DNA of 64,000 nt from Nitrospirota bacterium (GTDB lineage: Bacteria; Nitrospirota; UBA9217): positions 512,001 to 576,000 of the forward strand of contig CAWBNQ010000001.1 in assembly GCA_963790205.1 (NCBI GenBank), given 5' to 3'. A program made the translations under genes and the position numbers. Under the pieces are notes generated by a model, which was not told where the DNA came from, did not search any database, and saw only the letters and a list, made by a program, of their open reading frames with translations. Below are positions 7,964-54,520 of the stretch, in pieces. Positions within the stretch are counted from its first letter, which is position 1; each line of letters starts with the position of its first letter.

Positions 7964-8336
7964 GGCGTGGCTGAAGATATCCGCCGAGGACCTGCAATCA
8001 GCGGAGGTCCTTTTCGAGCGCAGGCTCTTCAGGATGGCCTGCTATCACGCCCAGCAGTCAGTCGAAAAAATCCTCAAAGCCCTTCTCGCCGACCACGAAG
8101 TCGATGTTCCCAGGACGCACAATATTCTGGACCTCAATAACGCAATAAAAAAGCTCGGGCACTCCGCGCTCATCGCCGACGAGGACGCTGTTTTCCTGAA
8201 CAGCATTTACCGTGCGCGCTATCCGTCCGAAGCGGGTCTTTTGCCTTTGGGAGAGCCGTTAGAAAAGGATGCCGAGCAGGCCCTCAAGATCGCGAGGGAC
8301 ACGGCAAATCGGATGAACAGGACCGACAGGAAGTAA
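7947..8336 (+). CDS. HEPN-domain protein (MNT-HEPN toxin-antitoxin partner)
   Basis: ACYHAQQSVEKILKALL, PRTHNI, RARYP. Confidence 0.9.
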   Translation: MRKEAEAWLKISAEDLQSAEVLFERRLFRMACYHAQQSVEKILKALLADHEVDVPRTHNILDLNNAIKKLGHSALIADEDAVFLNSIYRARYPSEAGLLPLGEPLEKDAEQALKIARDTANRMNRTDRK

Positions 8337-8429
8337 ACGCGATCAAGCGGAGCATGTCAAAACCAAAAGTCTGACCAGCTATGACTCATTGCTTTGTGGT
8401 CGTAGAACCTGCCATCTGGAGCCGAGTTT

Positions 8430-27736: not shown

Positions 27737-29071
27737 ATGATCAACATTCTCGTCGTTGACGACGAGGAGCCCTTTAGAAGGCTCCTCAAAAAAGAACTGG
27801 GGCGCAAGGGATATTCCGTCGAGGTCGCATCCGACGGCAGCGAAGCCCTGCGGTTTTTGCGGGACCGCTCCTTCGACGTGGTCCTCCTGGACGTCGTCAT
27901 GCCCGGTGTCGACGGGATCTCGCTTATGAAGACGGTGAAGGAGGACCCCGGGACGCCGTCGATCATCGTCCTCACGGGCAAGGCCACGGTGGAGACCGCG
28001 GTGGAAGCCATGAAGAACGGCGCCTACGATTACCTCACCAAGCCCTACAAGCTCGACGAGCTGGTTATCGTCATCGACCGGGCGTACGAGTATCGCCGGC
28101 TCTCCGTCAAGAGCAAGCTCCTGGAGCAGGAACTGGTCAGGAAGGAATCCCCCTTCGAACTCATCGGGAAAAGCGGGCAGCTCCGTGACATACTCGCGCT
28201 CATCCAGAAGGCGGCGCCTACGGACTCGCCGGTGTTCATCCAGGGTGAAAGCGGCACCGGCAAGGAGCTCGTGGCGAACACGGTCTGGCACTACAGCACG
28301 CGCAAGGACGCGCCGCTCATCGCCCTGAACTGCGCCTCCCTTTCGGAAAACCTCATCGAGTCGGAGATCTTCGGGCATGAGAAGGGCGCCTTCACCAGCG
28401 CCTACCAGATGAAGCACGGCCTCGTCGAAGTGGCGGACAAGGGAACGCTCTTTTTGGACGAGATCGGAGAGATGCCCGCCGGGCTCCAGGCCAAGCTCCT
28501 GCGGTTTCTCGATTCAGGCGAGTTCCGGCGGGTGGGGGGGAACAAGACGCTCTCGGTGGACGTGCGGGTGATCGCCGCCACGAACAAGGACCTCGCGGCC
28601 ATGATCAAGACCGGGAGCTTCCGGGAAGACCTGTATTACCGGCTGAACGTGATCAACATCGCCATCCCCCCGCTCCGGGAGCGCAAAGAGGACATCGCCG
28701 AGCTGTCACGGCATTTTCTGAAAAAGTACGCGAAGAAACTGTCCAAGTCCATCGCGGATTTCACCGACGAGGCGCTCGAACTGCTCATCGGCTATCACTG
28801 GCCGGGAAACGTGCGGGAACTCGAGAACGTCATTGAACGCGCGGTGATCCTCTGCGAGTCGGACACGATCGGGTCCGAAGACTTCTCCATCCCGCCTCAT
28901 GCGGCTGTTGCGGAAATCGGCGCCAATCCGCCCCTCGAAGAGATCGAGAAGACGTATATCCTGAGGGTCCTCAAAGAAGCGGGCAACAACCAGTCAAAGG
29001 CAAGCCAGCTCCTCGGCATCGACCGGAAAACCCTGTATCTCAAGCTGAAAAAATACGGGATCAATTCCTGA
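27737..29071 (+). CDS. Sigma54-dependent response regulator (NtrC family)
   Basis: REC domain, GESGTGKE, GAFTSA, FREDLYYRL, WPGNVRELEN, Fis-type HTH. Confidence 0.95.
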   Translation: MINILVVDDEEPFRRLLKKELGRKGYSVEVASDGSEALRFLRDRSFDVVLLDVVMPGVDGISLMKTVKEDPGTPSIIVLTGKATVETAVEAMKNGAYDYLTKPYKLDELVIVIDRAYEYRRLSVKSKLLEQELVRKESPFELIGKSGQLRDILALIQKAAPTDSPVFIQGESGTGKELVANTVWHYSTRKDAPLIALNCASLSENLIESEIFGHEKGAFTSAYQMKHGLVEVADKGTLFLDEIGEMPAGLQAKLLRFLDSGEFRRVGGNKTLSVDVRVIAATNKDLAAMIKTGSFREDLYYRLNVINIAIPPLRERKEDIAELSRHFLKKYAKKLSKSIADFTDEALELLIGYHWPGNVRELENVIERAVILCESDTIGSEDFSIPPHAAVAEIGANPPLEEIEKTYILRVLKEAGNNQSKASQLLGIDRKTLYLKLKKYGINS

Positions 29072-31217: not shown

Positions 31218-31320
31218 ACCTATAGAAACCTATAGGAAACCTATAGAACCTATAGGGTCAAACCTATAGCAAACCCAACCTATAGCAACCTATAGCAACC
31301 TATAGAGCAACCTATAGGGT
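31218..31320 (+). repeat. Irregular tandem array of (A)ACCTATAG, 9 copies
   Basis: Nine units separated by 0-7 nt, two of them followed by GGTCA. Inverted units occur at 33854-33870. Confidence 0.92.
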
Positions 31321-31330
31321 CACGTCTTGT

Positions 31331-32931: not shown

Positions 32932-32976
32932 TTGTAACTTGACAATTGCGTTGTGCTGTGATATCGTCGCGACATT

Positions 32977-33849
32977 ATGGCCCGTCCCCTTCGCATAGAG
33001 TATCCCGGTGCTGTTTACCAGGTCACCTCCCGCGGAAACGAAAAGAAGCCCGTCTTCAAGGACGAGCAGGACCGTCTGAACTTCCTCAATACTCTCCAGC
33101 ATGCCGGCAAACGCTACAACTGGATCTGCCACGCTTATTGTCTCATGACCAACCATTACCACCTCCTCATCGAGACCCCGGACGGCAATCTATCCATCGG
33201 CATGAGACAATTGAACGGCGTCTACACGCAGCTTTTTAACAATTGGCATGGCAGGACCGGTCACCTGTTCCAGGGACGATACAAAGCCATTCTGATCCAG
33301 AAGGACAGCCATCTCCTTGAGGTTTGCCGGTATGTGGTCCTGAATCCTGTACGGGCCAAGATGGTTGAGACGCCGGAGGGGTATCGCTGGTCTAGCTACC
33401 TGGCTACGGCGGGCAGAACAAAGCCCCATCCGTGCCTCACCACAGACTGGGTATTGGGCCAATTCAGCGGGAAGCGGGGCAAGGCGGAGCAAGAATACCG
33501 GCAGTTCGTCAAATGGGGGATCGGCAAACAATCCGTCTGGACCGACGTGCGGGGCCAGACGATACTCGGTGAAGAAGATTTTGCAGACCGCTTTATAGAT
33601 CATCTCAGGAAGCATAAAGAGGTGCCCGAGATCACCCGGAGTCAAAAATACCTGAAGAGGCCGGCCCTGGAAAAGCTGTTTTCGGAAGACATTTTGCGAA
33701 ATAAGCGCAAGCGGGACCGGCGCATAGCCGATGCGGTAGAACGCCATGGGTATCTTCAGAGAGAGCTCGCGGATCATCTGAGATTGAACTATGCAACCGT
33801 CAGCAGGTTGGTGAGTGCTCAAGAACAAATATCAAATAACAAGACGTGA
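32977..33849 (+). CDS. Y1 tyrosine transposase (IS200/RAYT-like) with C-terminal HTH
   Basis: MARPLRIE, YCLMTNHYH (HUH), GHLFQGRY, RYVVLNPV, YRWSSY. Confidence 0.9.
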   Translation: MARPLRIEYPGAVYQVTSRGNEKKPVFKDEQDRLNFLNTLQHAGKRYNWICHAYCLMTNHYHLLIETPDGNLSIGMRQLNGVYTQLFNNWHGRTGHLFQGRYKAILIQKDSHLLEVCRYVVLNPVRAKMVETPEGYRWSSYLATAGRTKPHPCLTTDWVLGQFSGKRGKAEQEYRQFVKWGIGKQSVWTDVRGQTILGEEDFADRFIDHLRKHKEVPEITRSQKYLKRPALEKLFSEDILRNKRKRDRRIADAVERHGYLQRELADHLRLNYATVSRLVSAQEQISNNKT

Positions 33850-36770: not shown

Positions 36771-37319
36771 TTACGCGGCCGATCGCTTCCGGACCACATC
36801 GAGTTCCGTCTTTACCGTCACCGGGCGGGAGAGTGTTATCCCGACTGGCGACGTTTTCACCACGTGGTCGTGCAGATCCCGCAGCATTCGGATATCTGCG
36901 TCAGCGTCGATCTGTACCCGCGCGAGCACGTTCTTAAACCCCGGAAGCCTGTCCATGTTGAGGTCAGCCGGAGGTTCAAGTCCAAGAAAACCGGGAAGGT
37001 CTATTTCACCCTCGATTTCTATCCGAAGCTTTTGGATTTTGATCCCCCGCACCGCGGCGTTCATGGCATAGCCGATGGCAAGGCATGCGCCGTAAGCCTG
37101 AAGCACCATCTCAACAGGGTTGGCGGCCGTGTTCGTTCCGACAAGCATCTCCGGCTCGTCGGCACGAAGCGTGAAGCCCCGGGACTCCGTTTCCACCCGG
37201 AACCCGTCCTTCCACGTTGCCGCCGCCTTCCAGACCGTTTTGCCCGTTTCCCAGTTCTTCTTGACCGACTCGACGACATTCAAAAGTTTTTCTGTTTCCA
37301 GTCCGTTGATTATCGGCAT
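36771..37319 (-). CDS. OsmC family protein
   Basis: ADEP..LVG.NTAANPVE..L.A.GAC, G.IDL.GFLGL, TSPV. Confidence 0.88.
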   Translation of the reverse strand: MPIINGLETEKLLNVVESVKKNWETGKTVWKAAATWKDGFRVETESRGFTLRADEPEMLVGTNTAANPVEMVLQAYGACLAIGYAMNAAVRGIKIQKLRIEIEGEIDLPGFLGLEPPADLNMDRLPGFKNVLARVQIDADADIRMLRDLHDHVVKTSPVGITLSRPVTVKTELDVVRKRSAA

Positions 37320-37736: not shown

Positions 37737-37752
37737 TGGCATCGCAAATGCA
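37737..37752 (+). promoter_or_regulatory. sigma54 -24/-12 promoter
   Basis: TGGCATCGCAAATGCA (GG-N10-GC) at the head of the methyltransferase operon. Confidence 0.65.
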
Positions 37753-37766: not shown

Positions 37767-38096
37767 ATGAAGAACATCATTCTCTGCTCCTCAAATCCCA
37801 TATTGATAAAAAGCCTTTACGGGATCCTGAGAGACGAAGGGTACGCGGTAGAAACCATCGAGCACCCGGCCTTTGCCGTACAGAAGGTCATGAACGCACA
37901 ATACGACTTTATCATCATAGACTCTGAACCGTTCGGCCTTTCCGCGGAAGATGCGGCAGAGATCATCAAAACCGTCGCGCCCGGGATGCCCATCCTGTTC
38001 GTCGGCGGCGACCGCGAAAAGGAGCACGCCCCGGCTGTGGAGACGCCGATCGATCTTGAAAAGTTCAAGCGGACGATCCACAGTTTCGCAGTCTGA
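37767..38096 (+). CDS. Degenerate stand-alone receiver-like protein
   Basis: REC-like pattern (IILCSS..., GYAVE, YDFIIID, MPILFVG, PID) without the acidic DD pair. Confidence 0.7.
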   Translation: MKNIILCSSNPILIKSLYGILRDEGYAVETIEHPAFAVQKVMNAQYDFIIIDSEPFGLSAEDAAEIIKTVAPGMPILFVGGDREKEHAPAVETPIDLEKFKRTIHSFAV

Positions 38097-38140: not shown

Positions 38141-39169
38141 ATGAAACCGAAAGAAGTGATCCTCAAGGCCTTTGAGGGGGGCAAGCCCGAGCGGCTTCCC
38201 GTGACCCTCTTCGGAGCGGGCATGTGGAGCATCAAGGGCTACGACACATCGTTCGAGGCCCTTTCTCACGATGCGGACAAGATGAGCGCCATGCTCGTGG
38301 ACATGAGCCCGAAGCTCCAATGCGACGTCGTTTATGCGGGCTCGGGATACAACAACTTCCATGCCTCGGCCCTCGGCGGAAAGATCAAGTTCCGGGAGGT
38401 CGGCGCGCCCGACCTGGAAAATCACTTCGTCTCTTCCGAGGAGGACCTTGCGAAGCTCAAGATCACCGATCTCGACAGGGACGATACCATCAATACCGTG
38501 AAGAAGGCGCTGCGCCTGACCAAGGCGAAAATAGGCGACACCTACGCCATGACCCTGACCGCCTGGGGACCCTTTACCCTCGGCGCCCGGCTCGTGGGCG
38601 AGGAGACCATGATGAAAGCCACGTTCAAGAAACCCGCTTTCGTCGAAAAGGTCGTTGACTTCGCCACCGACGTCCTGATCCACCTCTACGAGCCTCTCGT
38701 CAAGGACGGAACGCTCGAAGTCATCAGCCTGGCCGATCCCACGGCCTCGGGCGACCTCATCTCGCGCAAGCAGTTCGAGAAGTTCGCCGTGCCGTACCTT
38801 AAGAAATTTACCGACTGGGCGAAATCCAAAAACGTACATACGCTTGTCCACATCTGCGGCAACACCACGGACCGGCTGGACCTCTTCCCGAACACCGGCG
38901 CCTCCTGCATCAGCCTGGACCACAAAACGGACATGGCGAAGGCGAAGCAGACGCTCCACGGGAAGATGTGCTTCGGCGGGAACGTTGACCCCGTGAAGAT
39001 CATGCTCCAGGGCTCGGTCCAGGACGTGGAACACGCCTGCAAGGACGTCATCAAGATCGCCGGCAGTGACGGCGGCTTCGTGCTCATGCCGGGTTGCGAT
39101 ATCCCGCCGACCGTGCCCTATGACAATATCAAGAAGTTCATCCAAACGGCGCATGAATGGAAGATGTGA
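38141..39169 (+). CDS. MtaA/CmuA-type methyltransferase (URO-D superfamily) #1
   Basis: GPFTL, ADPTASGDLIS, HICG (Zn-binding HxC), GNVDP, MPGCDIP. Confidence 0.88.
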   Translation: MKPKEVILKAFEGGKPERLPVTLFGAGMWSIKGYDTSFEALSHDADKMSAMLVDMSPKLQCDVVYAGSGYNNFHASALGGKIKFREVGAPDLENHFVSSEEDLAKLKITDLDRDDTINTVKKALRLTKAKIGDTYAMTLTAWGPFTLGARLVGEETMMKATFKKPAFVEKVVDFATDVLIHLYEPLVKDGTLEVISLADPTASGDLISRKQFEKFAVPYLKKFTDWAKSKNVHTLVHICGNTTDRLDLFPNTGASCISLDHKTDMAKAKQTLHGKMCFGGNVDPVKIMLQGSVQDVEHACKDVIKIAGSDGGFVLMPGCDIPPTVPYDNIKKFIQTAHEWKM

Positions 39170-39334: not shown

Positions 39335-39778
39335 ATGGCTGATAAGAAAATGACAGTGGAAGAAGTAAACGAGTACATGAAGAAGCAGTGCGGTTTCGTA
39401 CCGCGCATGTTCCAGATCATCAACACCGTAACGCCCGAGCCGGGCAGGACCTTTGCTGATTTCTACGCCAGCATCTTCGGCGACGGGGCCCTTTCGCGCA
39501 AGGTGAAGGAGCTGATGTTCATGTCCGGCGGAGTGGGCTACTGCTCGCCCCGCTGCATCATCCACGTGATCCCGGCGATCAACGCGGGGGCGACCACGGG
39601 CGAGATCTTCGAGGCCGCATCGGTCGGCATGATCCTCGCGGGCTTCGTGCCCGGCGGGCCCGGCATTCCCTACGCCTTCGAGTACGCGTTGAAGTGCCTC
39701 GACATCGAAGCCAAGTACCGCAAGGGCGAGAAGTGGGAATACCTGCCGCAGCCCAAGTTCGACCACGGCGTGTTCTAA
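39335..39778 (+). CDS. CMD/AhpD family protein
   Basis: DGALSRKVKELM, YCSPRCIIH, GAT..EIFEA. Confidence 0.85.
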   Translation: MADKKMTVEEVNEYMKKQCGFVPRMFQIINTVTPEPGRTFADFYASIFGDGALSRKVKELMFMSGGVGYCSPRCIIHVIPAINAGATTGEIFEAASVGMILAGFVPGGPGIPYAFEYALKCLDIEAKYRKGEKWEYLPQPKFDHGVF

Positions 39779-39960: not shown

Positions 39961-40908
39961 ATGTTTCGATTTAAACAGGAGCAAAAAATATTTACCCTCG
40001 ACGGCATCAAGGTGGGCGGTCAGCCGGGAGAGAACCCGCCGCTTCTGATCGCGTCCATGTTTCACAACAAAGACCGGATCGTAACGGACCGGAAGGGCAA
40101 CTTCGACCGCGTAAAGGCCGCGGAGCTCATCAAGACGCAGGAAGCGCTTTCCGCCTCAACGGGCATCCCGTCCATGGTGGCCATGGTGGCAAACTCGCCG
40201 GAAGAAGCGAAGATCTACATAGACTTTTACCGCGAGACCACGAAGATGCCCTTCGGCATCGACATGTGGGTCGCGGAAAAGCGGGCACAGGCCACGGAGT
40301 ACGTGGCCAAGCTGGGATTGCAGGACCAGTTCCTGTATAACAGCATCACGCCCTGGGACAAGGACATCAAAGGCCAGGTCCAAAAATTGAAAGACCTCGG
40401 GATCAAGCACGTCGTGGTCCAGGCTTTCGACGACGCCGATCAGTCCCCGCGCGGGCGTCTTAACTCATTGGAGAAGATCCTCGCGCAGGGCGCCGATAGT
40501 TTTGAGACCATCATCGTCGATACCTCGGTCATGAACCTGCCTGCCACATCGTTCTCGCTCGTCGCGAACCGTATGATCAAGGAGAAGCTCGGCCTTCCCT
40601 GCGGCGGCGCCTACTCGAACGGCACGCATATGTGGAAAGAGGCGAAGACCATCTGGAGCCTCGACGGGTTCAAAGCGATGGATGCCGTGGTACAAGGCAT
40701 GGCCTCGGCGATCTGGAGCGATTTCAATTTCTACGGCCCCATCGTCACGGCGCCGCGGATCTTCCCGGCAGTGGCGGCGGCCCAGATCCTGCTTTCCACC
40801 CTGGTGTACGATGAAACACAAAAGATCTCCGACAATGAGAACGTCCCGATCAAGAAATACTTTTCGGACTTCCTCGGAAAGCTGACGGCTGGAGCAGCGA
40901 GGAAATGA
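39961..40908 (+). CDS. MtrH/MtgA-like pterin:corrinoid methyltransferase
   Basis: MFRFKQEQKIF...VGGQPGENP.LLIASMFH, G.FDR..A, LYNSI, GLPCGGA.SN, FYGPI. Confidence 0.85.
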   Translation: MFRFKQEQKIFTLDGIKVGGQPGENPPLLIASMFHNKDRIVTDRKGNFDRVKAAELIKTQEALSASTGIPSMVAMVANSPEEAKIYIDFYRETTKMPFGIDMWVAEKRAQATEYVAKLGLQDQFLYNSITPWDKDIKGQVQKLKDLGIKHVVVQAFDDADQSPRGRLNSLEKILAQGADSFETIIVDTSVMNLPATSFSLVANRMIKEKLGLPCGGAYSNGTHMWKEAKTIWSLDGFKAMDAVVQGMASAIWSDFNFYGPIVTAPRIFPAVAAAQILLSTLVYDETQKISDNENVPIKKYFSDFLGKLTAGAARK

Positions 40909-41192: not shown

Positions 41193-42227
41193 ATGTCAAC
41201 GACAACACTAACAGCGCGGGAACGGGTGCTCAAGCTCTTCGCCGGGGATGCGGTAGACCGGCCGCCGTGCTTCAGCGGCATGGGCAACGTGACCACCGAA
41301 GGGCTGAAATCCCTGAACCAGAAGTTTGCGGCAACGCACCTTGACGCAAAGATGATGGCCGCGGCCGCGGCCTCGACCTACAAGCTGTTCGGGTTCGAGT
41401 GCGCGGTGGCCCCTTTCGACCTCTGCATCGAGGCAGAAGCCATGGGATGCGAGATCAACGTGTACGCCCATTCCGAGGACCTGCTGTACCCCACGATCAA
41501 GAAAAAACTGATCCACAACGAGGCCGAAATGGAGATATCCATCCCATCAGGCCTCACCAAACGCGGCAGGGTCCCGCTCATGAAGGAGGCGATCACGCTC
41601 ATAAAGAAGGACATCGGTGGTGAAGCGCCGGTCGGCTCCTACGTCCTGGGGCCCTTCACGCTTGCCGGCCAGGTCATGGAGCTGAACGATCTGTTGAAGC
41701 TGTCCTTCAAGAAGCCGGACAAGATCGGCAAGCTCCTGGACCAGCTCTCGGACGTGATCATCCAGGTCGCGGGAGAGTACGAAATGGCCGGTGTGGACTT
41801 CATCACCGTCCGCGAGATGGGAGCAACGTCGGACGTGCTCTCTCCCCGCGTGTTCAAGAGCCTCATCCTGCCCTATCTGAAAAAGATCTTCGAGAAGCTG
41901 ATGGTGCCGAGCGTGCTCCACATCTGCGGAAAAACGAATGACATCGTCCCCTTTATGGCCGAAAGCGGCGCGAAAGCGATCAGCGTGGACCAGAAGAACG
42001 ATCTTGCCGAGACGCGCAAGAAGCTCGGGCCCAGGGCCCTCGTGTTCGGGAACTACGACCCCTACAACGTTCTCGTGGCCGGCACGCCGGACCTGGTGCG
42101 CCAGACCATTAAGAAATGCATGGACGACGGCGCCAGCGCGGTCTGGCCCGGGTGCGACATCTGGCCCACGGTGCCGGCGGAGAATTTCAAGGCCATGATG
42201 GACGAAGTCAGAAAGTACAGGAGGTAA
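41193..42227 (+). CDS. MtaA/MtsA-type methylcobalamin:thiol methyltransferase #2
   Basis: PFDLCIEAEAMG, GRVP, GPFTLA, VLHICG, GNYDP, WPGCDIW. Confidence 0.88.
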   Translation: MSTTTLTARERVLKLFAGDAVDRPPCFSGMGNVTTEGLKSLNQKFAATHLDAKMMAAAAASTYKLFGFECAVAPFDLCIEAEAMGCEINVYAHSEDLLYPTIKKKLIHNEAEMEISIPSGLTKRGRVPLMKEAITLIKKDIGGEAPVGSYVLGPFTLAGQVMELNDLLKLSFKKPDKIGKLLDQLSDVIIQVAGEYEMAGVDFITVREMGATSDVLSPRVFKSLILPYLKKIFEKLMVPSVLHICGKTNDIVPFMAESGAKAISVDQKNDLAETRKKLGPRALVFGNYDPYNVLVAGTPDLVRQTIKKCMDDGASAVWPGCDIWPTVPAENFKAMMDEVRKYRR

Positions 42228-42231: not shown

Positions 42232-42924
42232 ATGGTAACCGAAGAGAAGAAAAAAGAGCTGTTGGCGAAATTACGCAGCGCCGTGATATCGTATGACGAG
42301 GACACCTCCAAAGAGGCGGCCCAGGAAGCGCTGGACGTGGGCATGGACGCGAACGACGCCATCTTCAACGGCCTCGTCTCCGGCATGGTGGAGGTCGGGA
42401 AGATGTTCGAGGCCCAGGAATACTTCGTTCCGGAGCTCCTCATGTGCGCCGACGCGCTCTATGCGGGCCTGGACATCCTGAAGCCCCACGTGACGCAGAT
42501 GGACCTCGGGGTGAAGGGTTCGGTCGTGATCGGGACCGTGGAAGGCGACGTGCACGACATCGGCAAGAATATCGTAAAGATGATGTTCGATGTGGCGGGT
42601 TTCACGGTCTATGACCTCGGCCGCGACGTGCCTCTCGACAAGTTCGTGGCCGAGCAGCTCCGGACCGACTCGGACCTGGTCTGCCTCTCAGCCATGATGA
42701 CCACCACCATGACAGGCATGAAGAAGGTCATCGACGACCTCCGGGCAAAGAACCCCAACGTCAAGATCATGATCGGAGGGGCGCCCGTGTCCCAGGACGT
42801 GGCCGACAAGTACGGCGCGGACGGGTATGCCAAGGACGCGACCAATGCATTGAAGGACGCGATCAACATGATCGCCTCGCTCAAGAAGATGAAGGACGAA
42901 GCTGAAGCGAGGAAACGCGCATAA
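42232..42924 (+). CDS. Corrinoid protein (MtaC/MtsB-like)
   Basis: GDVHDIGKN (DxHxxG), DLGRDVP, LSAMMTTT, IGGAPV. Confidence 0.95.
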   Translation: MVTEEKKKELLAKLRSAVISYDEDTSKEAAQEALDVGMDANDAIFNGLVSGMVEVGKMFEAQEYFVPELLMCADALYAGLDILKPHVTQMDLGVKGSVVIGTVEGDVHDIGKNIVKMMFDVAGFTVYDLGRDVPLDKFVAEQLRTDSDLVCLSAMMTTTMTGMKKVIDDLRAKNPNVKIMIGGAPVSQDVADKYGADGYAKDATNALKDAINMIASLKKMKDEAEARKRA

Positions 42925-43016: not shown

Positions 43017-43653
43017 ATGAAGATCGAACTCAAGACAGAGCTGCTCGGCCACGGCGCCGCAGTCGTGGGCATTGCCGGGCTCCGGGGCCACATGAGTGGA
43101 GAGCTCGCCCACCTGGACCAAGCCGTGTCCATCGGCGTGGACCGGAAGCTGAACGAGGACACGCTGAGCCTCCTCATGAAGCTCCAGAAGCGCGCGGTGC
43201 GCTATCTGAAGTCCCGGGGGTACCGTACGCTTGGCCATCCCGCCGGATTCGGACCGGAAGCAGGGGACGTTCGTATCGAAACTGTACTCCCTGTTCAACC
43301 ACAAGATGGCGGCCACCTCGGCCGGGCTGGGCTGGATCGGGAAGAACGGCCTCCTCATCAGTGCGGACTACGGTCCCCGGTTGTCTCTGGCCACGGTTCT
43401 GACCGATGCGCCGCTCAATGCGGATGCGCCCATGGAATACAGCCTCTGCGGCGACTGCGTCCTGTGCATGACCCACTGCCCGTCAAAGGCGATCACCGGC
43501 TCGGAATGGTCAAGGTCCGCGCCGTTCGTCGAGCTCGTGAGGCTTTCCGTCTGCAGGTCCCACAAGGCAACGAAGCGTGCCACGGACGGAAAGCCCAACT
43601 GCGGGCTGTGCATCAACATATGTCCCTATGGGAGAGAGAACAAGCGCCAATGA
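43017..43653 (+). pseudogene. QueG/reductive-dehalogenase-like Fe-S protein, frameshifted near 43232
   Basis: The N-half (GAAVVGIA...GYRTL) and C-half (AIPP..HKMAA..AGLGWIGKN..GPR, CGDCVLC..CP, CGLC..CP) are in different frames. One extra base; could be an assembly error. Confidence 0.75.
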
Positions 43654-43741: not shown

Positions 43742-45718
43742 ATGTCTAAGAAACATAAAGTCATCTTTCAGCCCTCGGGCAGGCGCGGCGAAGTGGAGGA
43801 AGGCAAGACCATCCTCGAGGCCGCCCAGTCTTTGGGTGTGGATATCGAGGGGCTCTGCGGGAACAAAAAGGTCTGCGGCAAGTGCAAGGTCCGGATCGAA
43901 GAGGGGTATTTCGAGAAGGACAACATCGAATCGGGCATGGCCCACCTCTCGCCGCTGACGGAGGCGGAGAAAAAACACATAAAGCCCGAGGACGGCCCCG
44001 GCATGAGGCTGTCCTGCACCGCCGAGGTCCATGGCGACATCAAGGTCTTCGTACCCGAGCGATCGCGGGCAGGGAAGCAGGTCGTCAGGAAGGCCGCGAA
44101 GGAGCTCACGATCAAGCTCGACCCGGCTATCAGGAAATACAACGTGGAACTCGTGCCCCCGACGCTCCACGACATGACCACCGGAGACCGGGAGCGGGTC
44201 TTGAAGTTCCTCGAGGACGATTACGGACTTACAGAGCTTACGTTTGACTACCTGGTCCTGAAGGACCTTCAGGATGTTCTGCGCAAAGGCGGCTGGAAGG
44301 CAACGGTCACGGTATGGATGGACAAGGAAATCATTAAAGTTGAGTCTGGCTTCGTCGAAGCAAGCTATGGTCTTGCCGTGGACATCGGCACCACCACCTG
44401 CGTGGGCTACCTCACGGACCTGAACACGGGCAAGGTCGTGAACACCGAGTCGATCATGAACCCCCAGGTGCCCTACGGCGAGGACGTGATGTCGCGCATC
44501 ACCTTTGCCATGAGCAACCCGGGCGGCCTCGAGACCATGCAGAAGGCGATCATTCAGGGCCTGAACGAGATCATCGCGCGGGTGGTATCGGAGATCATCA
44601 AAGACGGCCCGGATCCCGGCCGCGTGATCGACGACCTCACGATCGTATTCAACACGGCCATGCACCATATCTTCCTCGGCTTGAACCCCGAATATATCGG
44701 CCGCTCGCCCTTCATCCCCGCGGTCCAGAGCTCCCTCGACATCAAGGCGCGCGACCTGGGCCTCAAGATCAATCCCTCGGCCTACATCCACGTACTGCCC
44801 ATTGAGGCGGGTTTTGTGGGCGCCGACAACGTGGGCGTCTTGATCGCCGAGGAACCCTATAATCAGGATGAGATGGTGCTGATCATCGACATCGGAACGA
44901 ACGGCGAGCTGCTCCTGGGCAACCGGAACAAGGTCTGCTCCACCTCGTGCGCAACCGGGCCGGCCTTTGAAGGCGCCCAGATCAAGTTCGGTATGCGCGC
45001 GGCCCCGGGCGCCATCGAGACCGTCGAGATCGATCCCGAGACCAAAGAACCGCGCTACAAGGTCATCGGCAAGGCGGACTGGCACACGCACATCGAGGCG
45101 GTGAATGCCAAGGGCCTCTGCGGCTCGGGCATCATCGGGGTCGTGGCGGAAATGTTCAAAGCCGGCGTCATCGACAAAAGCGGCAGGTTCGTCATGGACC
45201 TCGGCACGCCGCGGGTCAGGAAGGACGCTGACGGCAAACCCGAGTACGTGCTGGCCTGGGCGGCCGAGACCTCCATTGGCCAGGACATCACCATTACCCA
45301 GGGCGACGTACGGGCGCTGCAATTGGCGAAAGGGGCCCTCTATGCGGGCGCAAAGCTGATGATGAAGCGGCTCGGCGTCACCAAGCTCGATCGCGTGATC
45401 CTGGCGGGCGCCTTCGGGAGCCACATCGACAAGGTGGCTTCGATGACGCTCGGCATGTTCCCGGACTGCCCCATCGACATGGTCTACGCCGTGGGCAACG
45501 CTGCCGGAGACGGCTCGCGCATGGCGCTCTTGAACCGGGACAAGCGGCGCGAGGCGAACGAGCGGGCGCGGTGGGTCGAGTTCGTCGAGATCGCCACGGA
45601 CCCGGCGTTCGAGAAAGAGTTCATGCAGGCGATGCACATCCCCCACATGAAGGACAAGTTCCCGAATTTGAAGGAGCTGCTCGAGAGGTCGAGGAGCCCC
45701 GTGGAGATTAAAGCATAG
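43742..45718 (+). CDS. ASKHA-type reductive activator of corrinoid proteins (RACo/RamA-like, DUF4445)
   Basis: N-terminal 2Fe-2S CG...CGKC; DIGTTT, NPQ..GEDVMSRI, DIGTNGE, GPAFEG, LAGAFG, GNAA. Confidence 0.93.
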   Translation: MSKKHKVIFQPSGRRGEVEEGKTILEAAQSLGVDIEGLCGNKKVCGKCKVRIEEGYFEKDNIESGMAHLSPLTEAEKKHIKPEDGPGMRLSCTAEVHGDIKVFVPERSRAGKQVVRKAAKELTIKLDPAIRKYNVELVPPTLHDMTTGDRERVLKFLEDDYGLTELTFDYLVLKDLQDVLRKGGWKATVTVWMDKEIIKVESGFVEASYGLAVDIGTTTCVGYLTDLNTGKVVNTESIMNPQVPYGEDVMSRITFAMSNPGGLETMQKAIIQGLNEIIARVVSEIIKDGPDPGRVIDDLTIVFNTAMHHIFLGLNPEYIGRSPFIPAVQSSLDIKARDLGLKINPSAYIHVLPIEAGFVGADNVGVLIAEEPYNQDEMVLIIDIGTNGELLLGNRNKVCSTSCATGPAFEGAQIKFGMRAAPGAIETVEIDPETKEPRYKVIGKADWHTHIEAVNAKGLCGSGIIGVVAEMFKAGVIDKSGRFVMDLGTPRVRKDADGKPEYVLAWAAETSIGQDITITQGDVRALQLAKGALYAGAKLMMKRLGVTKLDRVILAGAFGSHIDKVASMTLGMFPDCPIDMVYAVGNAAGDGSRMALLNRDKRREANERARWVEFVEIATDPAFEKEFMQAMHIPHMKDKFPNLKELLERSRSPVEIKA

Positions 45719-45962: not shown

Positions 45963-46277
45963 ATGACAACGGTAATAGTAAACTCAGGGGCCTGCGGGTA
46001 TTCCGTCACGATCAAGGCGGAAAAGGGCAAGGACGGGAAGATCGCTCTTTCTCTCACGACGGACTGCGAGATGGTAACAAAGATGCTCGAGGACATCGCC
46101 GTTGTCGACCGTTTTGCCGCATTGACCGGGTTCCAGAACAATCCCGTGTACCGGTCCGCGTCAAAACACTTGAAACACGCGGCCTGCGTTGTGCCGTCCG
46201 CTATTTTGAAGGCCATCGAGGCCGAGGCGGGCTTGAATGTGCCGAAAGACGCGGTCATACGCTTCGTAAAAGAGTAA
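45963..46277 (+). CDS. Small Cys-containing protein (DUF6951-like)
   Basis: GACG...TDC...HAACVVP..ILKAIE.EAGL. Confidence 0.7.
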   Translation: MTTVIVNSGACGYSVTIKAEKGKDGKIALSLTTDCEMVTKMLEDIAVVDRFAALTGFQNNPVYRSASKHLKHAACVVPSAILKAIEAEAGLNVPKDAVIRFVKE

Positions 46278-46341: not shown

Positions 46342-47040
46342 ATGACTACCCTGGGAAAGATACTGGTTGTCGCGGCATACTGCGTGTACGCAGCGTTCTG
46401 GATACGGTTTTTCGCGCATTTGCTCGTGTGGTGGAGGGCCGCAAGGCGGCTTTCGGCGGGGGCCCCGGCGCCCGCCCCCCGATCGCGGTTGAAGGCCTGG
46501 GCGCTCACGGCCTCGGACGTGTTCCTTTTCGGACGGCTTCTGGTCGTGAACCCCGCGCTCTGGATCGGGGAGTGGGTCTTTCACGTTTCCTTTCTCCTGG
46601 TGCTCCTGCGGCATTTGCGGTATTTCCTGGACCCCGTGCCCGCGTGGGTATGGAGCGTTCAGTTCGCGGGCGCGATCGCGGGCTATATCCTGCCGCTCTC
46701 CCTCGTATACATCCTCGTCATCCGGCTGCTCACTGCACGGGAGAAATACGCTTCCCGCGCGAACGTGTTCCTCCTGGGCCTGGTGCTCGTCATCAGCTCG
46801 ATCGGGCTCATCATGCACGTGTGGCTCACGCCGAACCTCGTGGAGGTGAAGCTCTTCGCCCTCGGCTTGGCATGCTTCAAGCCGTCGCCCGCGCCGGGGA
46901 GCTTGTTGTTCATGGCGCACTTTATCCTGGTCCTGGTCCTGATTCCTTTTCTGCCCACGCACATCTTCACCGCGCCGCTCGTGATGATGGAGGCGAGAAA
47001 GAGGGAGCAGGCGCTCCACCTGGTGATGCATGAAGAATAA
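46342..47040 (+). CDS. Membrane cytochrome b, NarI/DsrM/HdrE-like
   Basis: About 5 TM helices; FHVSFLLVLLRHLRYF and HFILV...PTH heme-ligand His pairs. Confidence 0.8.
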   Translation: MTTLGKILVVAAYCVYAAFWIRFFAHLLVWWRAARRLSAGAPAPAPRSRLKAWALTASDVFLFGRLLVVNPALWIGEWVFHVSFLLVLLRHLRYFLDPVPAWVWSVQFAGAIAGYILPLSLVYILVIRLLTAREKYASRANVFLLGLVLVISSIGLIMHVWLTPNLVEVKLFALGLACFKPSPAPGSLLFMAHFILVLVLIPFLPTHIFTAPLVMMEARKREQALHLVMHEE

Positions 47041-48232
47041 ACGTTCATTCACGGAAGAGCTCCTGCCCCGGCAGGTCATCGAGCTCGACGCCTGCACCCA
47101 GTGCGGCGAGTGCTTGAAGCATTGCCCGGTCCAGGACGTTGCCGGGAATCCCGCGGTCTCGCCGCCCGAGAAGATCCGCATGTTCCGCGAGTTCATCCGC
47201 GCATCCGACGGTCTCAAGGCCACGCTCTTCGGCCCCCGCGAGGTTGACCGCAAACGGCTCGAGGACTTTACCAGGGCGGTGTATGAGTGCACGACCTGCG
47301 GCGCCTGCGGCCGGAAATGCCCGGTCGGGATCTTCACCCAGCGGCTCTGGCCCATGCTCAGAAAAGAAATGGTCAAGCGCGGACTCGGGCCCATCGGGAT
47401 CCAGGCGAACCTGCCCAAGGCGATCGAGCATTCCGGCAACCCTTATGACAAACCGGCGGCTGAACGCTACCAGCCCTGGTTCCCTGAACAGGTGAAGCTT
47501 GCAGAGCGGGCCGACATCGCCTATTACGCGGGATGCACGGGCGCTTACGAGGCGCAGCCCATGGTCAAGGGGGACGTGCTGGCATTACATGCGATCGGCG
47601 AGCCCTTTACCATGCTTCCGCCGGAGGAAGAGGTCTGCTGCGGCTTTCCTCTTTTTATTACGGGCCAGCACGACCTTCTCAAGGACCTTACGAAGAGGCT
47701 CGTGGAGGGATACAAGGCAAAGGGAGTGAAGGTCCTCGTCTGTTCCTGCCCCTGCTGCGTGAACATCATGACCAGGGACTGGCCGCTGTTCTACGGAGAG
47801 GCGCTCCCGTTCAAGATCCGGCATATCACGCAGTACGTGTCGGACGCGCTCTCAACAGGGAAACTCAGGCTGACGAAGGCATTAAACGAATCCGTCATCT
47901 ATCACGACCCCTGCTACCTCTCCCGGGGGGTCGGAGTGATCGAGGAGCCGCGCACGGTGCTCAAAAGCATCCCCGGCCTCACGCTCCTGGAGTTCGAGCG
48001 CCACGGGCTCAACTCCCGCTGCTGCGGCTCCGGCGGGGCCGCGAGGAAGGTCTTTCACGAAAACGCCATTGCCATGGGCAGGCTGACGATCGACGAGGCT
48101 GTGGCAAAGAAGGCGGACCGCCTGATCCTCGCCTGCCCAGCCTGCTACGCAAAGGTGAACGAGGCCATGCAGGGACACAAGAACCAGATACGGATCACGG
48201 ACATCATGGAACTGGTGAGCGGGTTGATTTAA
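47030..48232 (+). CDS. HdrD-like Fe-S/CCG-domain oxidoreductase
   Basis: Two CxxCxxCxxxCP motifs; two CCG domains (YAGC..VCCG..CPCC; HDPC..RCCG..CPAC). Confidence 0.88.
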   Translation: MKNKRSFTEELLPRQVIELDACTQCGECLKHCPVQDVAGNPAVSPPEKIRMFREFIRASDGLKATLFGPREVDRKRLEDFTRAVYECTTCGACGRKCPVGIFTQRLWPMLRKEMVKRGLGPIGIQANLPKAIEHSGNPYDKPAAERYQPWFPEQVKLAERADIAYYAGCTGAYEAQPMVKGDVLALHAIGEPFTMLPPEEEVCCGFPLFITGQHDLLKDLTKRLVEGYKAKGVKVLVCSCPCCVNIMTRDWPLFYGEALPFKIRHITQYVSDALSTGKLRLTKALNESVIYHDPCYLSRGVGVIEEPRTVLKSIPGLTLLEFERHGLNSRCCGSGGAARKVFHENAIAMGRLTIDEAVAKKADRLILACPACYAKVNEAMQGHKNQIRITDIMELVSGLI

Positions 48233-48256
48233 AAGATGTACTAAGGCTATTTGGTC

Positions 48257-48329
48257 GTCATTCCTGCGAAAGCAGGAATCCAGGATCTTATTGAAAACTC
48301 ACTGGATTCCGGGTCAAGCCCGGAATGAC
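48257..48329. repeat. RPE/dRS3-like palindromic element
   Basis: GTCATTCCTGCGAAAGCAGGAATCCAG ... CTGGATTCCGGGTCAAGCCCGGAATGAC. Confidence 0.8.
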
Positions 48330-48352
48330 GGCGTAAGGGAAAGCAAAAAATC

Positions 48353-49612
48353 ATGAGCCATTTTTCGATTCAATGCAGAAAGTGCGGCAAAACCCTCGAA
48401 CACGCCTACTGCGCCTTCTGCGAACACTGCAAGGACGCGCTCCTCGTCACGAATTATCACGACACCAGGTTCGCGGAACGCGAAGCCGACGGTATCTGGA
48501 GGTTCAACTGGCTTCCGGTCCATGGCTCGCAGTTCTCCCAGCCGGGTCCGCTCGTATACCGATCGCAGCGCCTCGCGGAGCGCCTCGGCCTCGAAAAGCT
48601 CTACATTGCCTTCAACGGGTACTGGCCCGAGAAGGGAGCCTTGCTCGAAACGTGCACGTTCAAGGAGTTCGAAGCAGCGGTCGTGCTCCAGAACGCCCGG
48701 GAGAACGGCGTCGAGGGACTGATCGTGGCCTCGGCAGGGAACACGGCGCGGGCCTTCGCGCACCTCTCGACCGTAACGGGATTTCCGGTCGTCATTGTCG
48801 TGCCCCGGATGTGCCTCGAGGAAATGTGGTATCTCGAACGCTCGAGCGCGGTACCGACGCTCGCCGTTGGGGACGGGGACTACGCCGACTCCATCGACGT
48901 TGCCAGGAAGATCGCCCTGGCCCGGGGCTTTCCCTTCGAGGGAGGCGTAAAGAACATCGCCAAGCGGGACGGCCTCGGCATCGTGATGCTCGAAGCAGTA
49001 TCGAAGATAGGCAGGCTGCCGGACCATTACGCCCAGGCCGTGGGAAGCGGCACCGGCGCCATCGGCGCGTGGGAGATGGCCGAGCGGTTCGTGAAAGACG
49101 GCAGGTTCGGACCGCGGTTGCCGATCCTCCACTTGGGACAGAACCTTCCCTTCGCTCCCATGGTCCATGCCTGGGAGCGCCGGAGCCGGACGCTGTTCCC
49201 CGAGGACCTGAGGCCGGAGCTGATCGGTCAGATCACGACGCGCGTGCTCTCAACGCGCTATCCCGCCTACTCGGTCCAGGGCGGCTTGTACGACGCCCTC
49301 ACGGCAACGGGCGGAAAGATGTACGGCATCGAGAACGACGCCGTCTACGCCGGCATGGAGCTTTTCCACGAGGCCGAGGGCATCGACATCGTTCCCGCCT
49401 CGGGCGTGGCTGTTGCCGCGCTCGGCGAAGCCGTACGCACAAACGCTATCAGGAAGAACGAGACCGTGCTCTTGAACATCACCGGCGGGGGCGAGGCGCG
49501 GCTCCGGCAGGCGAAGAAGACCTACGCTGTTGAGCCGAAGTTCATATCCAAGAACGCCACTGACCAAGAGATAGAGGAGCTTCTGTGCCACGCCCTGAAG
49601 AAGAACTCATAA
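48353..49612 (+). CDS. Cysteate synthase (Methanosarcina MA3297-type, PLP-dependent)
   Basis: FNGYWPEKGA...TCTFKEFEA, ASAGNTARAF, EGG.KNIAKRDGLG, QAVGSGTG, LNITGGG. Confidence 0.88.
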   Translation: MSHFSIQCRKCGKTLEHAYCAFCEHCKDALLVTNYHDTRFAEREADGIWRFNWLPVHGSQFSQPGPLVYRSQRLAERLGLEKLYIAFNGYWPEKGALLETCTFKEFEAAVVLQNARENGVEGLIVASAGNTARAFAHLSTVTGFPVVIVVPRMCLEEMWYLERSSAVPTLAVGDGDYADSIDVARKIALARGFPFEGGVKNIAKRDGLGIVMLEAVSKIGRLPDHYAQAVGSGTGAIGAWEMAERFVKDGRFGPRLPILHLGQNLPFAPMVHAWERRSRTLFPEDLRPELIGQITTRVLSTRYPAYSVQGGLYDALTATGGKMYGIENDAVYAGMELFHEAEGIDIVPASGVAVAALGEAVRTNAIRKNETVLLNITGGGEARLRQAKKTYAVEPKFISKNATDQEIEELLCHALKKNS

Positions 49613-50721
49613 CCATCCTCAAAAAGCACGGGGTTGACTTCACCGCCTCGCTTCCCTGCGAGAAGATCAAGACCCTCCTCGAGATAGTGGGTCTGTCTTT
49701 CTTTCACGTACCCCTGACAAGAGAAGAAGAAGGCGTCGGCATCTCCGCCGGGGCCGCGCTCTCGGGCAGAAGACCAGCCCTCTTCGTCCAGAGCTCGGGG
49801 CTGGGGAACATGATCAATGCCCTGCTTTCGCTCACGCAGTTCTACGAGCTTCCGCTCGCGCTGTTCGTCAGCAGGCGGGGGGTCTACAAGGAAAAGATCG
49901 AGGCCCAGGTCCCCATGGGTCAGAAGCTCCCCGGAATCCTCGCGGGCGCGGGAATCACGTACTCAAAAATAAACACAAAAAACGACATCAACCTGATGGA
50001 CCGGGAACTTCAGGAGGTCTACGGCAAAAACAGGATACATGCGTTCCTGATGAGCCCTGAAGTGTGGGAGGGGTCGAAGTGCGGGGGAGCAGATGCAGGA
50101 AGCAAGATACAGAATAATCAGGATGTTGTTCATCGTCCGCCGTCCGTCGTCCATCATCCATCGCGCGCCACCCTCACCCGGTACGATATCATCAGAATCC
50201 TCGCGCCGTATCTTGAAGGTAAGGCCGTAGTGAGCAATCTCGGCTGGCCCTCCAAGGAACTCTACGCCGTAAAACACCAGCCCTCGAACTTTTACATGCT
50301 CGGAAGCATGGGCATGGCCACGCCCATCGGTCTCGGCATTGCGCTCACGTCATCGAAGGAAATCATCGTGATCGACGGCGACGGCAGCCTGCTCATGAAT
50401 CCCGGCACGCTGGCAACGGCCGCCGACCGTGCGCCGCGAAATCTCACGATCGTCGCGATCGACAACAACGCCTACGGCTCCACGGGAAACCAGCCGACGT
50501 TAACGGGGACATGCGTTGATCTCGAAGCCGTCGCGCGCGGGTTCGGGTTCAGGAATACCGTTAAGGTTTCGAGTGAAGAGCAGATTGTGGAAACGATGAA
50601 ACAGCGAGAAGGTTTGACGTTTATTCACGCCCTGGCGATTCCCGGGAACAAGGACGTGCCGAATATCCCCGTGCATCATCTGGAGATCAAAAAGCAGGTG
50701 CAGGAGTTTCTGAAAAAGTGA
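49585..50721 (+). CDS. comDE: Fused sulfopyruvate decarboxylase ComD-ComE
   Basis: LPCEKIK, LTREEEGVGI.AGA, QSSGLGN; then SNLG.PSKEL, NFYMLGSMG and the TPP motif DGDGSLLMN...DNNAYGSTG. Overlaps cysteate synthase. Confidence 0.88.
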   Translation: MPRPEEELITILKKHGVDFTASLPCEKIKTLLEIVGLSFFHVPLTREEEGVGISAGAALSGRRPALFVQSSGLGNMINALLSLTQFYELPLALFVSRRGVYKEKIEAQVPMGQKLPGILAGAGITYSKINTKNDINLMDRELQEVYGKNRIHAFLMSPEVWEGSKCGGADAGSKIQNNQDVVHRPPSVVHHPSRATLTRYDIIRILAPYLEGKAVVSNLGWPSKELYAVKHQPSNFYMLGSMGMATPIGLGIALTSSKEIIVIDGDGSLLMNPGTLATAADRAPRNLTIVAIDNNAYGSTGNQPTLTGTCVDLEAVARGFGFRNTVKVSSEEQIVETMKQREGLTFIHALAIPGNKDVPNIPVHHLEIKKQVQEFLKK

Positions 50722-53923: not shown

Positions 53924-54520
53924 CTACAATTTTCCCGTCTTTTGATATTCCTCGACATAAACCTTGATTGCCCGAAGGATGATCCAGTCCATCGTAACAC
54001 TATTGTTCTTTGCAATTTGAATGAGCGCGTCGACCAGCTCCTTATCGATCGTAGGCTGATCAACAGGTTGAGGGGTGGTAGTCTCTTCCGGCGGCTTTAT
54101 CTCTTCACCGGGCATCCTTTTCTGATGCTCTCTGCGAAGAAGGTCCATAAGCCCTCTTACATCACCGCCCTGGATCGCTTTTTTTACCTCCTCCGGCACC
54201 TCTTCCGCGGAAGGTGTCTGACTTGAGGCCGCGTTTTCCGGAGGCAGCGGCTGCTCCCTGTTCTCAGGCGAATGCGAGAAAGCGGGAGCGCCTCCCGGGG
54301 GCATCATCCCCGTCATGCCCATCATCATGGTGGCCAGGTTTCGCGCGTATTCGTTATCCGGCATTTCCTGTTTCAGAAATTCCTCGAGCTTTCCCTCTGC
54401 CATGGCCGCGGCCATGCGGTCCGCGAGCAGCGCGCCCTGTTCCTCCTCCTGCCCAAACTGTTTTTTTCTTCCGAAGGCCGTGTTGGGCGGCTTCGGCAAT
54501 GGTTTTTCCTTCTTTGACAT
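53924..54520 (-). CDS. Hypothetical protein
   Basis: 198-aa ORF with plausible codon usage; possible RHH-like C-terminus. Confidence 0.65.
   Translation of the reverse strand: MSKKEKPLPKPPNTAFGRKKQFGQEEEQGALLADRMAAAMAEGKLEEFLKQEMPDNEYARNLATMMMGMTGMMPPGGAPAFSHSPENREQPLPPENAASSQTPSAEEVPEEVKKAIQGGDVRGLMDLLRREHQKRMPGEEIKPPEETTTPQPVDQPTIDKELVDALIQIAKNNSVTMDWIILRAIKVYVEEYQKTGKL

Follow-up and report, generated by a model that had tools for sequence, protein, structure and literature searches.

The stretch of 64,000 nucleotides analysed here (contig CAWBNQ010000001.1, positions 512,001 to 576,000, of a Nitrospirota bacterium of the UBA9217 lineage; called the window below) encodes a cysteate synthase (cs) and a fused sulfopyruvate decarboxylase (ComDE) as the last two genes of a methyltransferase operon. 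We regard the gene pair and its operon as a variant of the known coenzyme M (CoM) pathway in an unexpected host, and SsuAL, a signal-less protein of the SsuA/TauA fold encoded 23 kb upstream of the pair, as a candidate for a second CoM synthase. It is probable that the product is CoM or a nearly identical sulfonate thiol. Provided that such a thiol is made, we also think it fairly probable that SsuAL is the enzyme that inserts the sulfur. The complete route, in which cs, ComDE and SsuAL together with a ThiS sulfur carrier would supply CoM to the methyltransferases of the operon, we place slightly below an even chance.

The original prediction had named both genes, their 28-bp overlap and the fusion of ComD with ComE, and each of these points withstood comparison with curated models. 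The open reading frame (ORF) 48353-49612 scored 474.4 bits with the cysteate synthase model TIGR03844 (cut-off 324.9). Residues 5-161 of ORF 49585-50721 scored 181.1 with the ComD model TIGR03845 (cut-off 147.95) and residues 199-375 scored 226.2 with the ComE model TIGR03846 (cut-off 221.5), so that ComD and ComE form one chain; the phosphonopyruvate decarboxylase model TIGR03297 was not passed by ComDE (209.2 against a cut-off of 312.5). The motifs TCTFKE (with K104), SAGNT, GSGTG and NITGGG of cs are kept across 78 aligned sequences, and in ComDE REEEG at 46, GDGS at 265 and GDGS...DNN are conserved; we take these motifs to have roles with pyridoxal phosphate (PLP) and thiamine diphosphate (ThDP), respectively. 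The two genes share positions 49585-49612, and GGAG lies just 5' of the GTG of comDE. Chance does not explain the overlap, whose projected length is 25 or 28 bp in 72 of the 73 relatives for which a value could be obtained, and ComDE is an unbroken single frame in 69 of 77 relatives. Judged by their families, cs likely catalyses the conversion of phosphoserine and sulfite to cysteate, and ComDE likely makes sulfoacetaldehyde. Between the hdrD-like gene and cs lies a palindromic REP-like element (48254-48332), which blastn matched 11 more times in the genome and which reaches very high depth in metagenomes.

No aminotransferase and no gene of COG1900, the family of ComF/MMP16 and of the backup L-ASST (PMC12068725), was found among the window ORFs scanned, in agreement with the original prediction, which had concluded that the remaining steps are either encoded elsewhere or completed by unassigned neighbours. 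For the aminotransferase the first option holds: the missing gene is no gap, because Methanosarcina acetivorans uses a non-specific aminotransferase for CoM synthesis (PMC12068725) and eight class I/II aminotransferases are encoded in the source genome (G000). The last step would have to be new, as PF01837 (COG1900) was found neither in G000 nor in any of 80 other genomes, with M. acetivorans and Methanocaldococcus jannaschii as positive controls; TIGR03287 matched ferredoxin-sized pieces only (0/5 over the cut-off). The neighbours that had been named for this step, CMD/AhpD-like, QueG-like, DUF6951 and OsmC, are all real genes (Table 1), but they are weaker candidates than SsuAL, which tracks the pair genome-wide. 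The original prediction named neither SsuAL nor the large methyltransferase/Hdr operon that the pair closes. DUF6951 and the QueG-like protein are possible helpers of the last step, and OsmC, which matched just four fetched loci, was rejected as the final enzyme.

The source genome (4.34 Mb, 98.3% complete, 4.0% contaminated) encodes a Wood-Ljungdahl cluster, dsrAB/C/MKJOP and aprA. It gave no match to MetH (PF02574) or to McrA (PF02249; searched in this genome alone), and the substrate-specific methyltransferases MttB and MtaB were not found (none in this genome and 0/5). Of 301 Nitrospirota genomes, 54 (spread over 13 families) encode a cs above the cut-off. A panel of 80 genomes, which are kin and not independent, set 53 other cs carriers against 27 non-carriers hand-picked from carrier families; G179 and G200, with split cs, lay outside the panel, and for SsuAL and PF01717 the source genome took the place of G238, giving 54 carriers and 26 non-carriers. 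ComDE was found in 53/53 carriers and 1/27 non-carriers, the latter an 80-residue piece in G032, and an MtrH-like gene in 53/53 and 2/27. AcsB (50/53 and 26/27) and DsrA (53/53 and 24/27) did not separate the groups. Within families, ComDE, the MtrH-like gene and SsuAL (counts below) are thus gained and lost together, and the operon is an accessory element of hosts that bear Dsr and AcsB, which retain it or lose it as a whole. In the source genome dsrA is split into two frames (C14:63709-64855; L082, L084), which may be an assembly indel like the shift in the QueG-like gene described below, and duplicated gene runs on small contigs possibly represent the 4% contamination (C1:790-806k and C4:5-20k with RACo-DUF3109-speE; C3:56-72k and C13:12-24.7k with CCG-YkuD-transaldolase). 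Loci L012 (Betaproteobacteria label) and L037 (Rokubacteria label) have Nitrospirota-like genes (82% and 68% identity) and may be mis-binned.

Databases label SsuAL as a substrate-binding protein of the NitT/TauT type. In 98 of 121 close homologues the chain begins at the aligned methionine, and in 114 of 137 motif hits the open frame extends no more than 20 codons upstream of the motif; most copies are thus too short at the N-terminus for a signal peptide. Without an export signal and with a score of 74.5 against the SsuA cut-off of 163.5 (TIGR01728), SsuAL does not class as an SsuA/TauA transporter binding protein. H7, Y12, H13, C74, H79, H121, D122, Y193 and H216 are invariant, and E81, C257, H300 and H305 nearly so. 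A plasmid search returned only binding proteins of about 26% identity, and no longer fused forms were found, which says little by itself. SsuAL was present in 53/54 carriers and 3/26 non-carriers, two of these three also having the MtrH-like gene. It lies within the cs flank in 14 of 80 loci, and the copy of the source genome is 63% identical to the family that stands beside comDE; in L028, L037 and L080 SsuAL stays near cs though these loci lack the methyltransferase genes.

The association extends beyond Nitrospirota. A motif scan of metagenomes found 119 stretches, of which the 80 listed were used for all neighbourhood counts: 75 have SsuAL, with ComDE in the flank in 26 and a true cs in 21 (two of 23 cs matches, L119 and L169, were at ThrC level and are not counted), many contigs being short. 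SsuAL (43-47% identity) directly follows comDE on the same strand in L113, L114, L120, L122, L137, L163, L177 and L181. In seven Methanomicrobiales-looking loci, a label which like others of its kind is inferred from neighbouring genes, SsuAL stands beside cs, comDE, an Fe-S protein, a GTPase and an ATPase, with DUF2099 in two of them; the latter three resemble those reported near CoM genes (PMC12068725). L122 and L189 are bacterial-looking contigs outside Nitrospirota with cs-comDE-SsuAL, L122 adjoining hydantoinase-like and ATP-grasp genes. A 198-residue protein, whose gene often separates comDE from SsuAL, had matches in 49 of the fetched loci.

A sulfur donor for SsuAL is suggested by ThiS-family genes, which lie near SsuAL in 15 of the 75 listed metagenome loci (five of which supplied the queries, six being confirmed by Pfam), and by ThiF in five. 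For the pair of locus L181, whose SsuAL is 47% identical to that of the window in a gapless alignment, the predicted SsuAL-ThiS complex scored 0.82, against 0.47 for the best of three controls. Of 157 solved complexes 116 attain the mark used for this score, as against 2 of 215 mismatched pairs; this calibration is only rough because own alignments were used. The runs share at least 93% of contacts, with a partner pLDDT of at least 88. In the model ThiS residues 88-94, the Gly-Gly tail, contact SsuAL residues 9-12, 120, 122, 145-152 and 164-168, which line the conserved cleft, and the prediction thus supports binding of the ThiS tail by SsuAL. We are not aware of any ThiS carrier with a partner of the SsuA fold. 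In the source genome a ThiS that ends AGG-RG is encoded in a hom-TusA-ThiF-JAB-ThrC-ThiS operon (C3:867754-871024; L229). ThiS of this type is available but not specific, as it is present in 52/53 carriers and 23/27 non-carriers. The hom-TusA-ThiF-JAB-ThrC-ThiS operon may itself be a thiocarboxylate route to homocysteine or cysteine, with COG1900 absent.

The 13-gene plus-strand operon that ends in cs-comDE starts at 37767 (Table 1). Among the 80 best loci from GTDB genomes (77 titled as Nitrospirota lineages, two with other phylum labels), and limited by 10-kb flanks and contig ends, the same order was seen for ComDE in 77, HdrD-like in 72, NarI-like in 62, DUF6951 in 61, RACo in 59, QueG-like in 56, corrinoid protein in 53, MtaA2 in 51, MtrH in 51, CMD in 41 and MtaA1 in 33. 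The use of CoM is supported by the closest known relatives of the operon enzymes, which use CoM (the two MtaA proteins, MtaA2 lying above the methylcobalamin:CoM methyltransferase cut-off, and the HdrD-like protein with two CCG domains). The best solved relative of MtaA2 is the methylcobalamin:CoM methyltransferase 4ay7 (E 1.9e-46). Its zinc motif H243-C245...C321 is invariant in 50 aligned sequences and the corresponding H237-C239...C319 of MtaA1 in 23; a His-Cys-Cys site in this fold marks S- or Se-methyltransferases (PMC10418091). The CCG cysteines of the HdrD-like protein are at least 97% conserved in 63 sequences, and four histidines of the NarI-like membrane protein, which likely holds two b-hemes, are invariant in 55. 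This membrane partner is replaced by a different protein of 270-280 residues or missing in L028, L034, L075 and L109, and most or all of the HdrED-like pair is missing in L003 and L023.

Table 1. Features of the window discussed in the text, in order of position; the 13 operon genes run from the receiver-domain protein to comDE (aa, residues).
Feature	Positions	Strand	Basis and remarks
SsuAL, signal-less SsuA/TauA-fold protein, 313 aa	24297..25238	-	PF13379/PF09084
PAS-GAF-PAS histidine kinase	25448..27490	+	Pfam
Sigma-54-dependent response regulator	27737..29071	+	Pfam/NCBIfam
OsmC	36771..37319	-	outside the operon
Sigma-54-type -24/-12 box TGGCATCGCAAATGC	37737..37751	+	30 bp 5' of the first ATG (37767)
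Receiver-domain protein, first operon gene	37767..38096	+	PF00072 weak; position conserved
MtaA-like methyltransferase 1 (MtaA1), UroD fold	38141..39169	+	TIGR01463 179 bits, under cut-off
CMD/AhpD-like protein	39335..39778	+	PF02627
MtrH/MtgA-family pterin (folate):corrinoid methyltransferase	39961..40908	+	NF002142 329.4 (cut-off 287)
MtaA-like methyltransferase 2 (MtaA2), methylcobalamin:CoM methyltransferase family	41193..42227	+	NF004889 271.6 (cut-off 244); TIGR01463 250 (cut-off 235.4)
Corrinoid (B12-binding) methyl-carrier protein	42232..42924	+	PF02310, PF02607; TIGR02370 208.3 (cut-off 215.3)
QueG-like 2x[4Fe-4S] protein	43017..43653	+	family profiles; apparent frameshift at 43230
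RACo/AcsV-type ATP-dependent corrinoid activator	43742..45718	+	PF14574, PF17651, PF17650, PF00111
DUF6951 protein, IscU/SufE-like fold (model)	45963..46277	+	PF22263
NarI/DsrM/HdrE-like membrane protein	46342..47040	+	NF038037 weak
HdrD-like protein with two full CCG domains and two ferredoxin motifs	47030..48232	+	PF02754 x2, PF13183
Cysteate synthase (cs), PLP enzyme, 419 aa	48353..49612	+	TIGR03844
Fused sulfopyruvate decarboxylase (comDE), ThDP enzyme, GTG start, 378 aa	49585..50721	+	TIGR03845 and TIGR03846
198-aa protein	53924..54520	-	no Pfam/NCBIfam match; membership uncertain

Other operon genes bear on the chemistry less directly. DUF6951 has C11, C35, H72 and C75 invariant in the alignment; its model (pLDDT 95.5) gave ISCU as top Foldseek match only at E 0.014, with none at E<=0.001, and matched IscU with VIA Z 6.3 and a root-mean-square deviation of 3.2 over 92 residues, in a tie with lipoate-ligase domains. 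The protein could be a sulfur or cluster carrier. The CMD/AhpD-like protein is the most conserved of the operon (89% mean column identity) and has a shifted motif C70-S-P-R-C74-I-I-H77; its structure model was poor (pLDDT 60) and unfit for a structure search, and atlas searches with CMD and DUF6951 returned their own families only. An assembly error probably accounts for the apparent frameshift in the QueG-like gene: one base at 43230 is absent from the contigs of runs X1, X2 and X3, and the relatives have intact QueG-like genes of about 220 codons. A real pseudogene was rejected on this basis. FolD is inserted into the operon in eight relatives (three of them checked), which ties the operon to folate, and a chemoreceptor is inserted in five loci. 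In L076 an SsuA-family ABC transporter above the cut-off lies directly 5' of cs, and ABC genes occur likewise in L041; ssuA/ssuC are the CoM transporter of M. acetivorans (PMC12068725).

The sigma-54-type box in front of the operon has two mismatches to the consensus, and all 14 relatives examined have a match at this distance as well (-32 to -36 counted from the second codon as aligned). The kinase and sigma-54 regulator genes adjoin SsuAL or precede the operon in L093-L096, L098, L100-L102, L105 and L107, and the response regulator 27737-29071 likely activates the operon. Transposases (ISL3, IS1182, IS200-like, IS4) occur at 29948-33849 and 5946-11249, the former group between the operon and the SsuAL/two-component genes.

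From these components we propose the following route. By family, cs would form cysteate from O-phosphoserine and sulfite, for which AprA is present as a source. A housekeeping aminotransferase would transaminate cysteate, as in M. acetivorans, and ComDE would yield sulfoacetaldehyde. The cleft of SsuAL is then predicted to bind the sulfonate and to take sulfur from ThiS-thiocarboxylate, which the TusA-ThiF-JAB-ThrC-ThiS operon of the genome may make; the two electrons needed might, speculatively, be delivered by one of the operon's Fe-S proteins, either the QueG-like or the HdrD-like one. CoM would act as a methyl shuttle linking the zinc-thiol MtaA enzymes, the corrinoid protein and the folate methyltransferase (MtrH/MtgA type) of the Wood-Ljungdahl pathway, with methanethiol or dimethyl sulfide (DMS) as the most likely substrates, and the HdrED-like pair would keep CoM reduced from the quinone pool. 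A more far-reaching form is tentative and in our view somewhat less likely than not: anaerobic Nitrospirota with Dsr and the Wood-Ljungdahl pathway would run a methyl-CoM metabolism without methane and finish CoM by a second, unrelated CoM synthase of the SsuA fold, a cytoplasmic metalloenzyme to which a ubiquitin-like thiocarboxylate carrier supplies the sulfur and which methanogen-like and further archaeal and bacterial lineages have in common with them.

Several observations weigh against the proposed route. Thiol-to-folate methyl transfer goes uphill, so that methyl groups may flow in either direction, and the MtaA-corrinoid-MtrH chain is not obviously in need of CoM. A thiocarboxylate supplies sulfur but no electrons, and no reductant travels with SsuAL across lineages. 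The modelled pair is archaeal-looking (L181) and not the SsuAL of the window with the ThiS of its genome, and one control reached 0.47. ThiS of the latter type behaves as a housekeeping gene, given its occurrence in non-carriers, and in just one of the 80 genome loci, L037, does ThiS adjoin cs-comDE. The co-occurrence counts stem from related genomes and from non-carriers chosen by hand, and G298 (94% complete) has the operon and no SsuAL match. In L145, L172, L174, L169 and L179 SsuAL has neither cs nor comDE in the flank and neighbours ThiS/ThiF/TusA/DsrE, ThrC-ThiS or MoaA; several low-GC and other archaeal-looking loci have SsuAL without CoM genes in the flank. The SsuAL family may therefore have other substrates, into which it may insert sulfur. 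Regulators adjoin SsuAL in two lineages. Finally, mmp16 is listed in 7 of the 10 examined Methanoregulaceae rows with cs and comDE (S1 table of PMC12068725), so that SsuAL and ComF/MMP16 may coexist in this family, the genomes of the table not being matched to the SsuAL loci.

The regulators fit a role of SsuAL as a cytoplasmic sensor or binder of sulfonate or CoM, with CoM made and used and the last step achieved by other means: DUF6951 as sulfur carrier with the QueG-like or HdrD-like protein as reductase and the CMD-like protein as thiol relay, or sulfide, which abounds in a Dsr-bearing cell, reacting without a catalyst. SsuAL is divergent from the kinase/sigma-54 pair in Nitrospirota and follows a helix-turn-helix gene in Methanomicrobiales-looking loci, its profile search of solved structures returned only three substrate-binding proteins (3un6, 6ssy and 2x26), the nearest solved relatives being taurine- and sulfonate-binding proteins, and a possible coexistence with MMP16 agrees with a sensor as well. 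As to the other means, DUF6951 combines an IscU/SufE-like fold with three Cys and one His, and in M. acetivorans high sulfide masks the loss of MMP16, MMP16 deletions still growing in sulfide (PMC12068725). We nevertheless consider this alternative unlikely. A sensor leaves unexplained the dozen near-invariant His, Cys and acidic residues, the ThiS neighbours and the predicted insertion of the ThiS tail, and DUF6951, QueG-like and CMD genes are absent from most cs-comDE-SsuAL loci outside Nitrospirota, with L137 as an exception.

It is improbable that sulfoacetaldehyde or cysteate is instead turned into another sulfonate (taurine, isethionate, sulfoacetate, sulfonolipid or a methylated sulfonate), the methyltransferases acting on a different thiol. 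The absence of COG1900 from G000 and 80/80 genomes and the lack of a McrA match in G000 are compatible with such a product, generic dehydrogenases and transaminases are still candidates, nearby sulfonate ABC genes fit any sulfonate, and bacterial cysteate synthases serve sulfonolipids in other phyla. Sulfonolipid synthesis, however, would need no ComDE, the operon neighbours include no conserved dehydrogenase, transaminase or acyltransferase family, and the link to MtaA- and HdrD-like genes would be unexplained. Isethionate and Xsc sinks were rejected, with nothing above the Xsc cut-off in G000 and glycyl-radical enzymes in only 1 of 40 carriers.

[quoted passage not shown] Methyl transfer from folate to a thiol is the downhill direction, G000 has no MetH or MetE-type match, AhpD-like and OsmC genes lie nearby, and CoM protects M. 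acetivorans from oxidative stress (PMC12713407). PF01717 (MetE-type) is absent from all 54 carriers, but also from 23 of 26 non-carriers (77 of 80 in all), so a MesB-like enzyme elsewhere (PMC7857596) is the simpler methionine synthase; a methionine synthase role of the MtaA proteins was rejected, as the absence does not discriminate. The sigma-54 box and the inserted FolD and chemoreceptor genes fit an inducible catabolic operon.

Our preferred reading, a CoM route completed by SsuAL, can be set beside known systems. Methanosarcina MtsA/B and MtsD/F/H are methyl-sulfide:CoM methyltransferases, and HdrED consists of a b-heme membrane subunit and a subunit with two CCG domains. The operon resembles them in combining a zinc-thiol methyltransferase of the UroD fold with a corrinoid protein and, as judged from the sequences, in the HdrED features of two CCG domains, two ferredoxin motifs and a b-heme-type membrane partner. 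It differs in that no Mcr is present for methyl-CoM, no coenzyme B is indicated and a folate methyltransferase lies in the operon. Thiocarboxylate sulfur carriers operate in CysM-CysO-Mec, ThiG-ThiS and MoaE-MoaD, and periplasmic-binding-fold enzymes are represented by THI5 and DszB. SsuAL would share with these a ubiquitin-like carrier tail predicted to enter its cleft and a cytoplasmic binding-protein fold with conserved His and Cys; it differs in that its structure profile search gave only substrate-binding proteins.

Up to sulfoacetaldehyde the pair would work like the type 2 (phosphoserine) CoM pathway of Methanosarcinales and Methanomicrobiales, which comprises MA3297 (cs), MA3298 (fused ComDE) and MA3299 (MMP16/ComF) in M. 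acetivorans (PMC12068725). The Methanosarcina-like gene order asserted by the original prediction is thus confirmed, curated models are passed and the aminotransferase lies outside the cluster in both. Membership fails on ComF and Mcr: the host is a bacterium without a McrA match, MMP16/COG1900 is absent, the pair stands in a methyltransferase/Hdr operon and forms a separate clade, and the Fe-S/GTPase/ATPase trio was not found in G000. The XcbA-E pathway of Xanthobacter autotrophicus Py2 likewise makes CoM in a bacterium, but begins from phosphoenolpyruvate, uses different enzymes and serves aerobic alkene/epoxide metabolism (PMC9457059). Type 1 mlp clusters of anaerobic bacteria, for which a role with methylated sulfur or selenium compounds was proposed, contain at least two MtaA-like His-Cys-Cys proteins, a corrinoid protein and a RACE activator (Kountz and Balskus, PMC10418091). 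The operon has at least two MtaA-like proteins, a corrinoid protein and an activator, all co-directional. The type 1 definition (PMC10418091) bars a folate methylase within 20 kb, whereas the operon contains an MtrH-family gene. The main text of that article contains no 'Nitrospir', 'cysteate' or 'sulfopyruvate', and an Hdr pair or CoM genes were not seen described in it. The literature searched, with subscription journals and most supplements lying outside it, contained no description of the operon or of a CoM step by an SsuA-fold protein and ThiS.

Interdomain transfer, which the original prediction considered possible, may have occurred at an older date. In Nitrospirota, cs, ComDE and SsuAL fall into a single clade each (SH-like support 100, 95 and 98), and the enzyme clade is long-stemmed; L037 nests within it. 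Near-full-length Nitrospirota-like cs all fall under one 50% representative and the next are at most 48% identical, with Methanomassiliicoccus, Phycisphaerae, Acetothermia and Methanosarcinaceae among their names and most carrying no taxon name. Deeper branching was without resolution in a FastTree of 105 rows. A joint clade of Nitrospirota and Methanomicrobia-type cs was rejected by the approximately unbiased (AU) test (p=0.0007; 23 rows, LG+G4), in which the group had been chosen once a quick tree was at hand, its members were mostly labelled from their neighbours and the tree had no reliable root. A Methanomicrobia-type donor was therefore rejected, and although the arrangement is Methanosarcina-like, these trees do not support a transfer from Methanosarcina-type methanogens.

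In print, CoM belongs to alkane-metabolising archaea and, with a separate pathway, to alkene-using bacteria (PMC12068725, PMC9457059). If the proposed route is true, a third use of CoM, in sulfur-cycling anaerobic bacteria, would widen the range of the cofactor, and the operon would provide candidate enzymes for the anaerobic bacterial turnover of methanethiol and DMS. The last step of CoM synthesis has long been unsettled; SsuAL, now annotated as a transporter subunit, would then be a second type of enzyme for it. Such a second CoM synthase could account for genomes that contain cs and comDE without MMP16.

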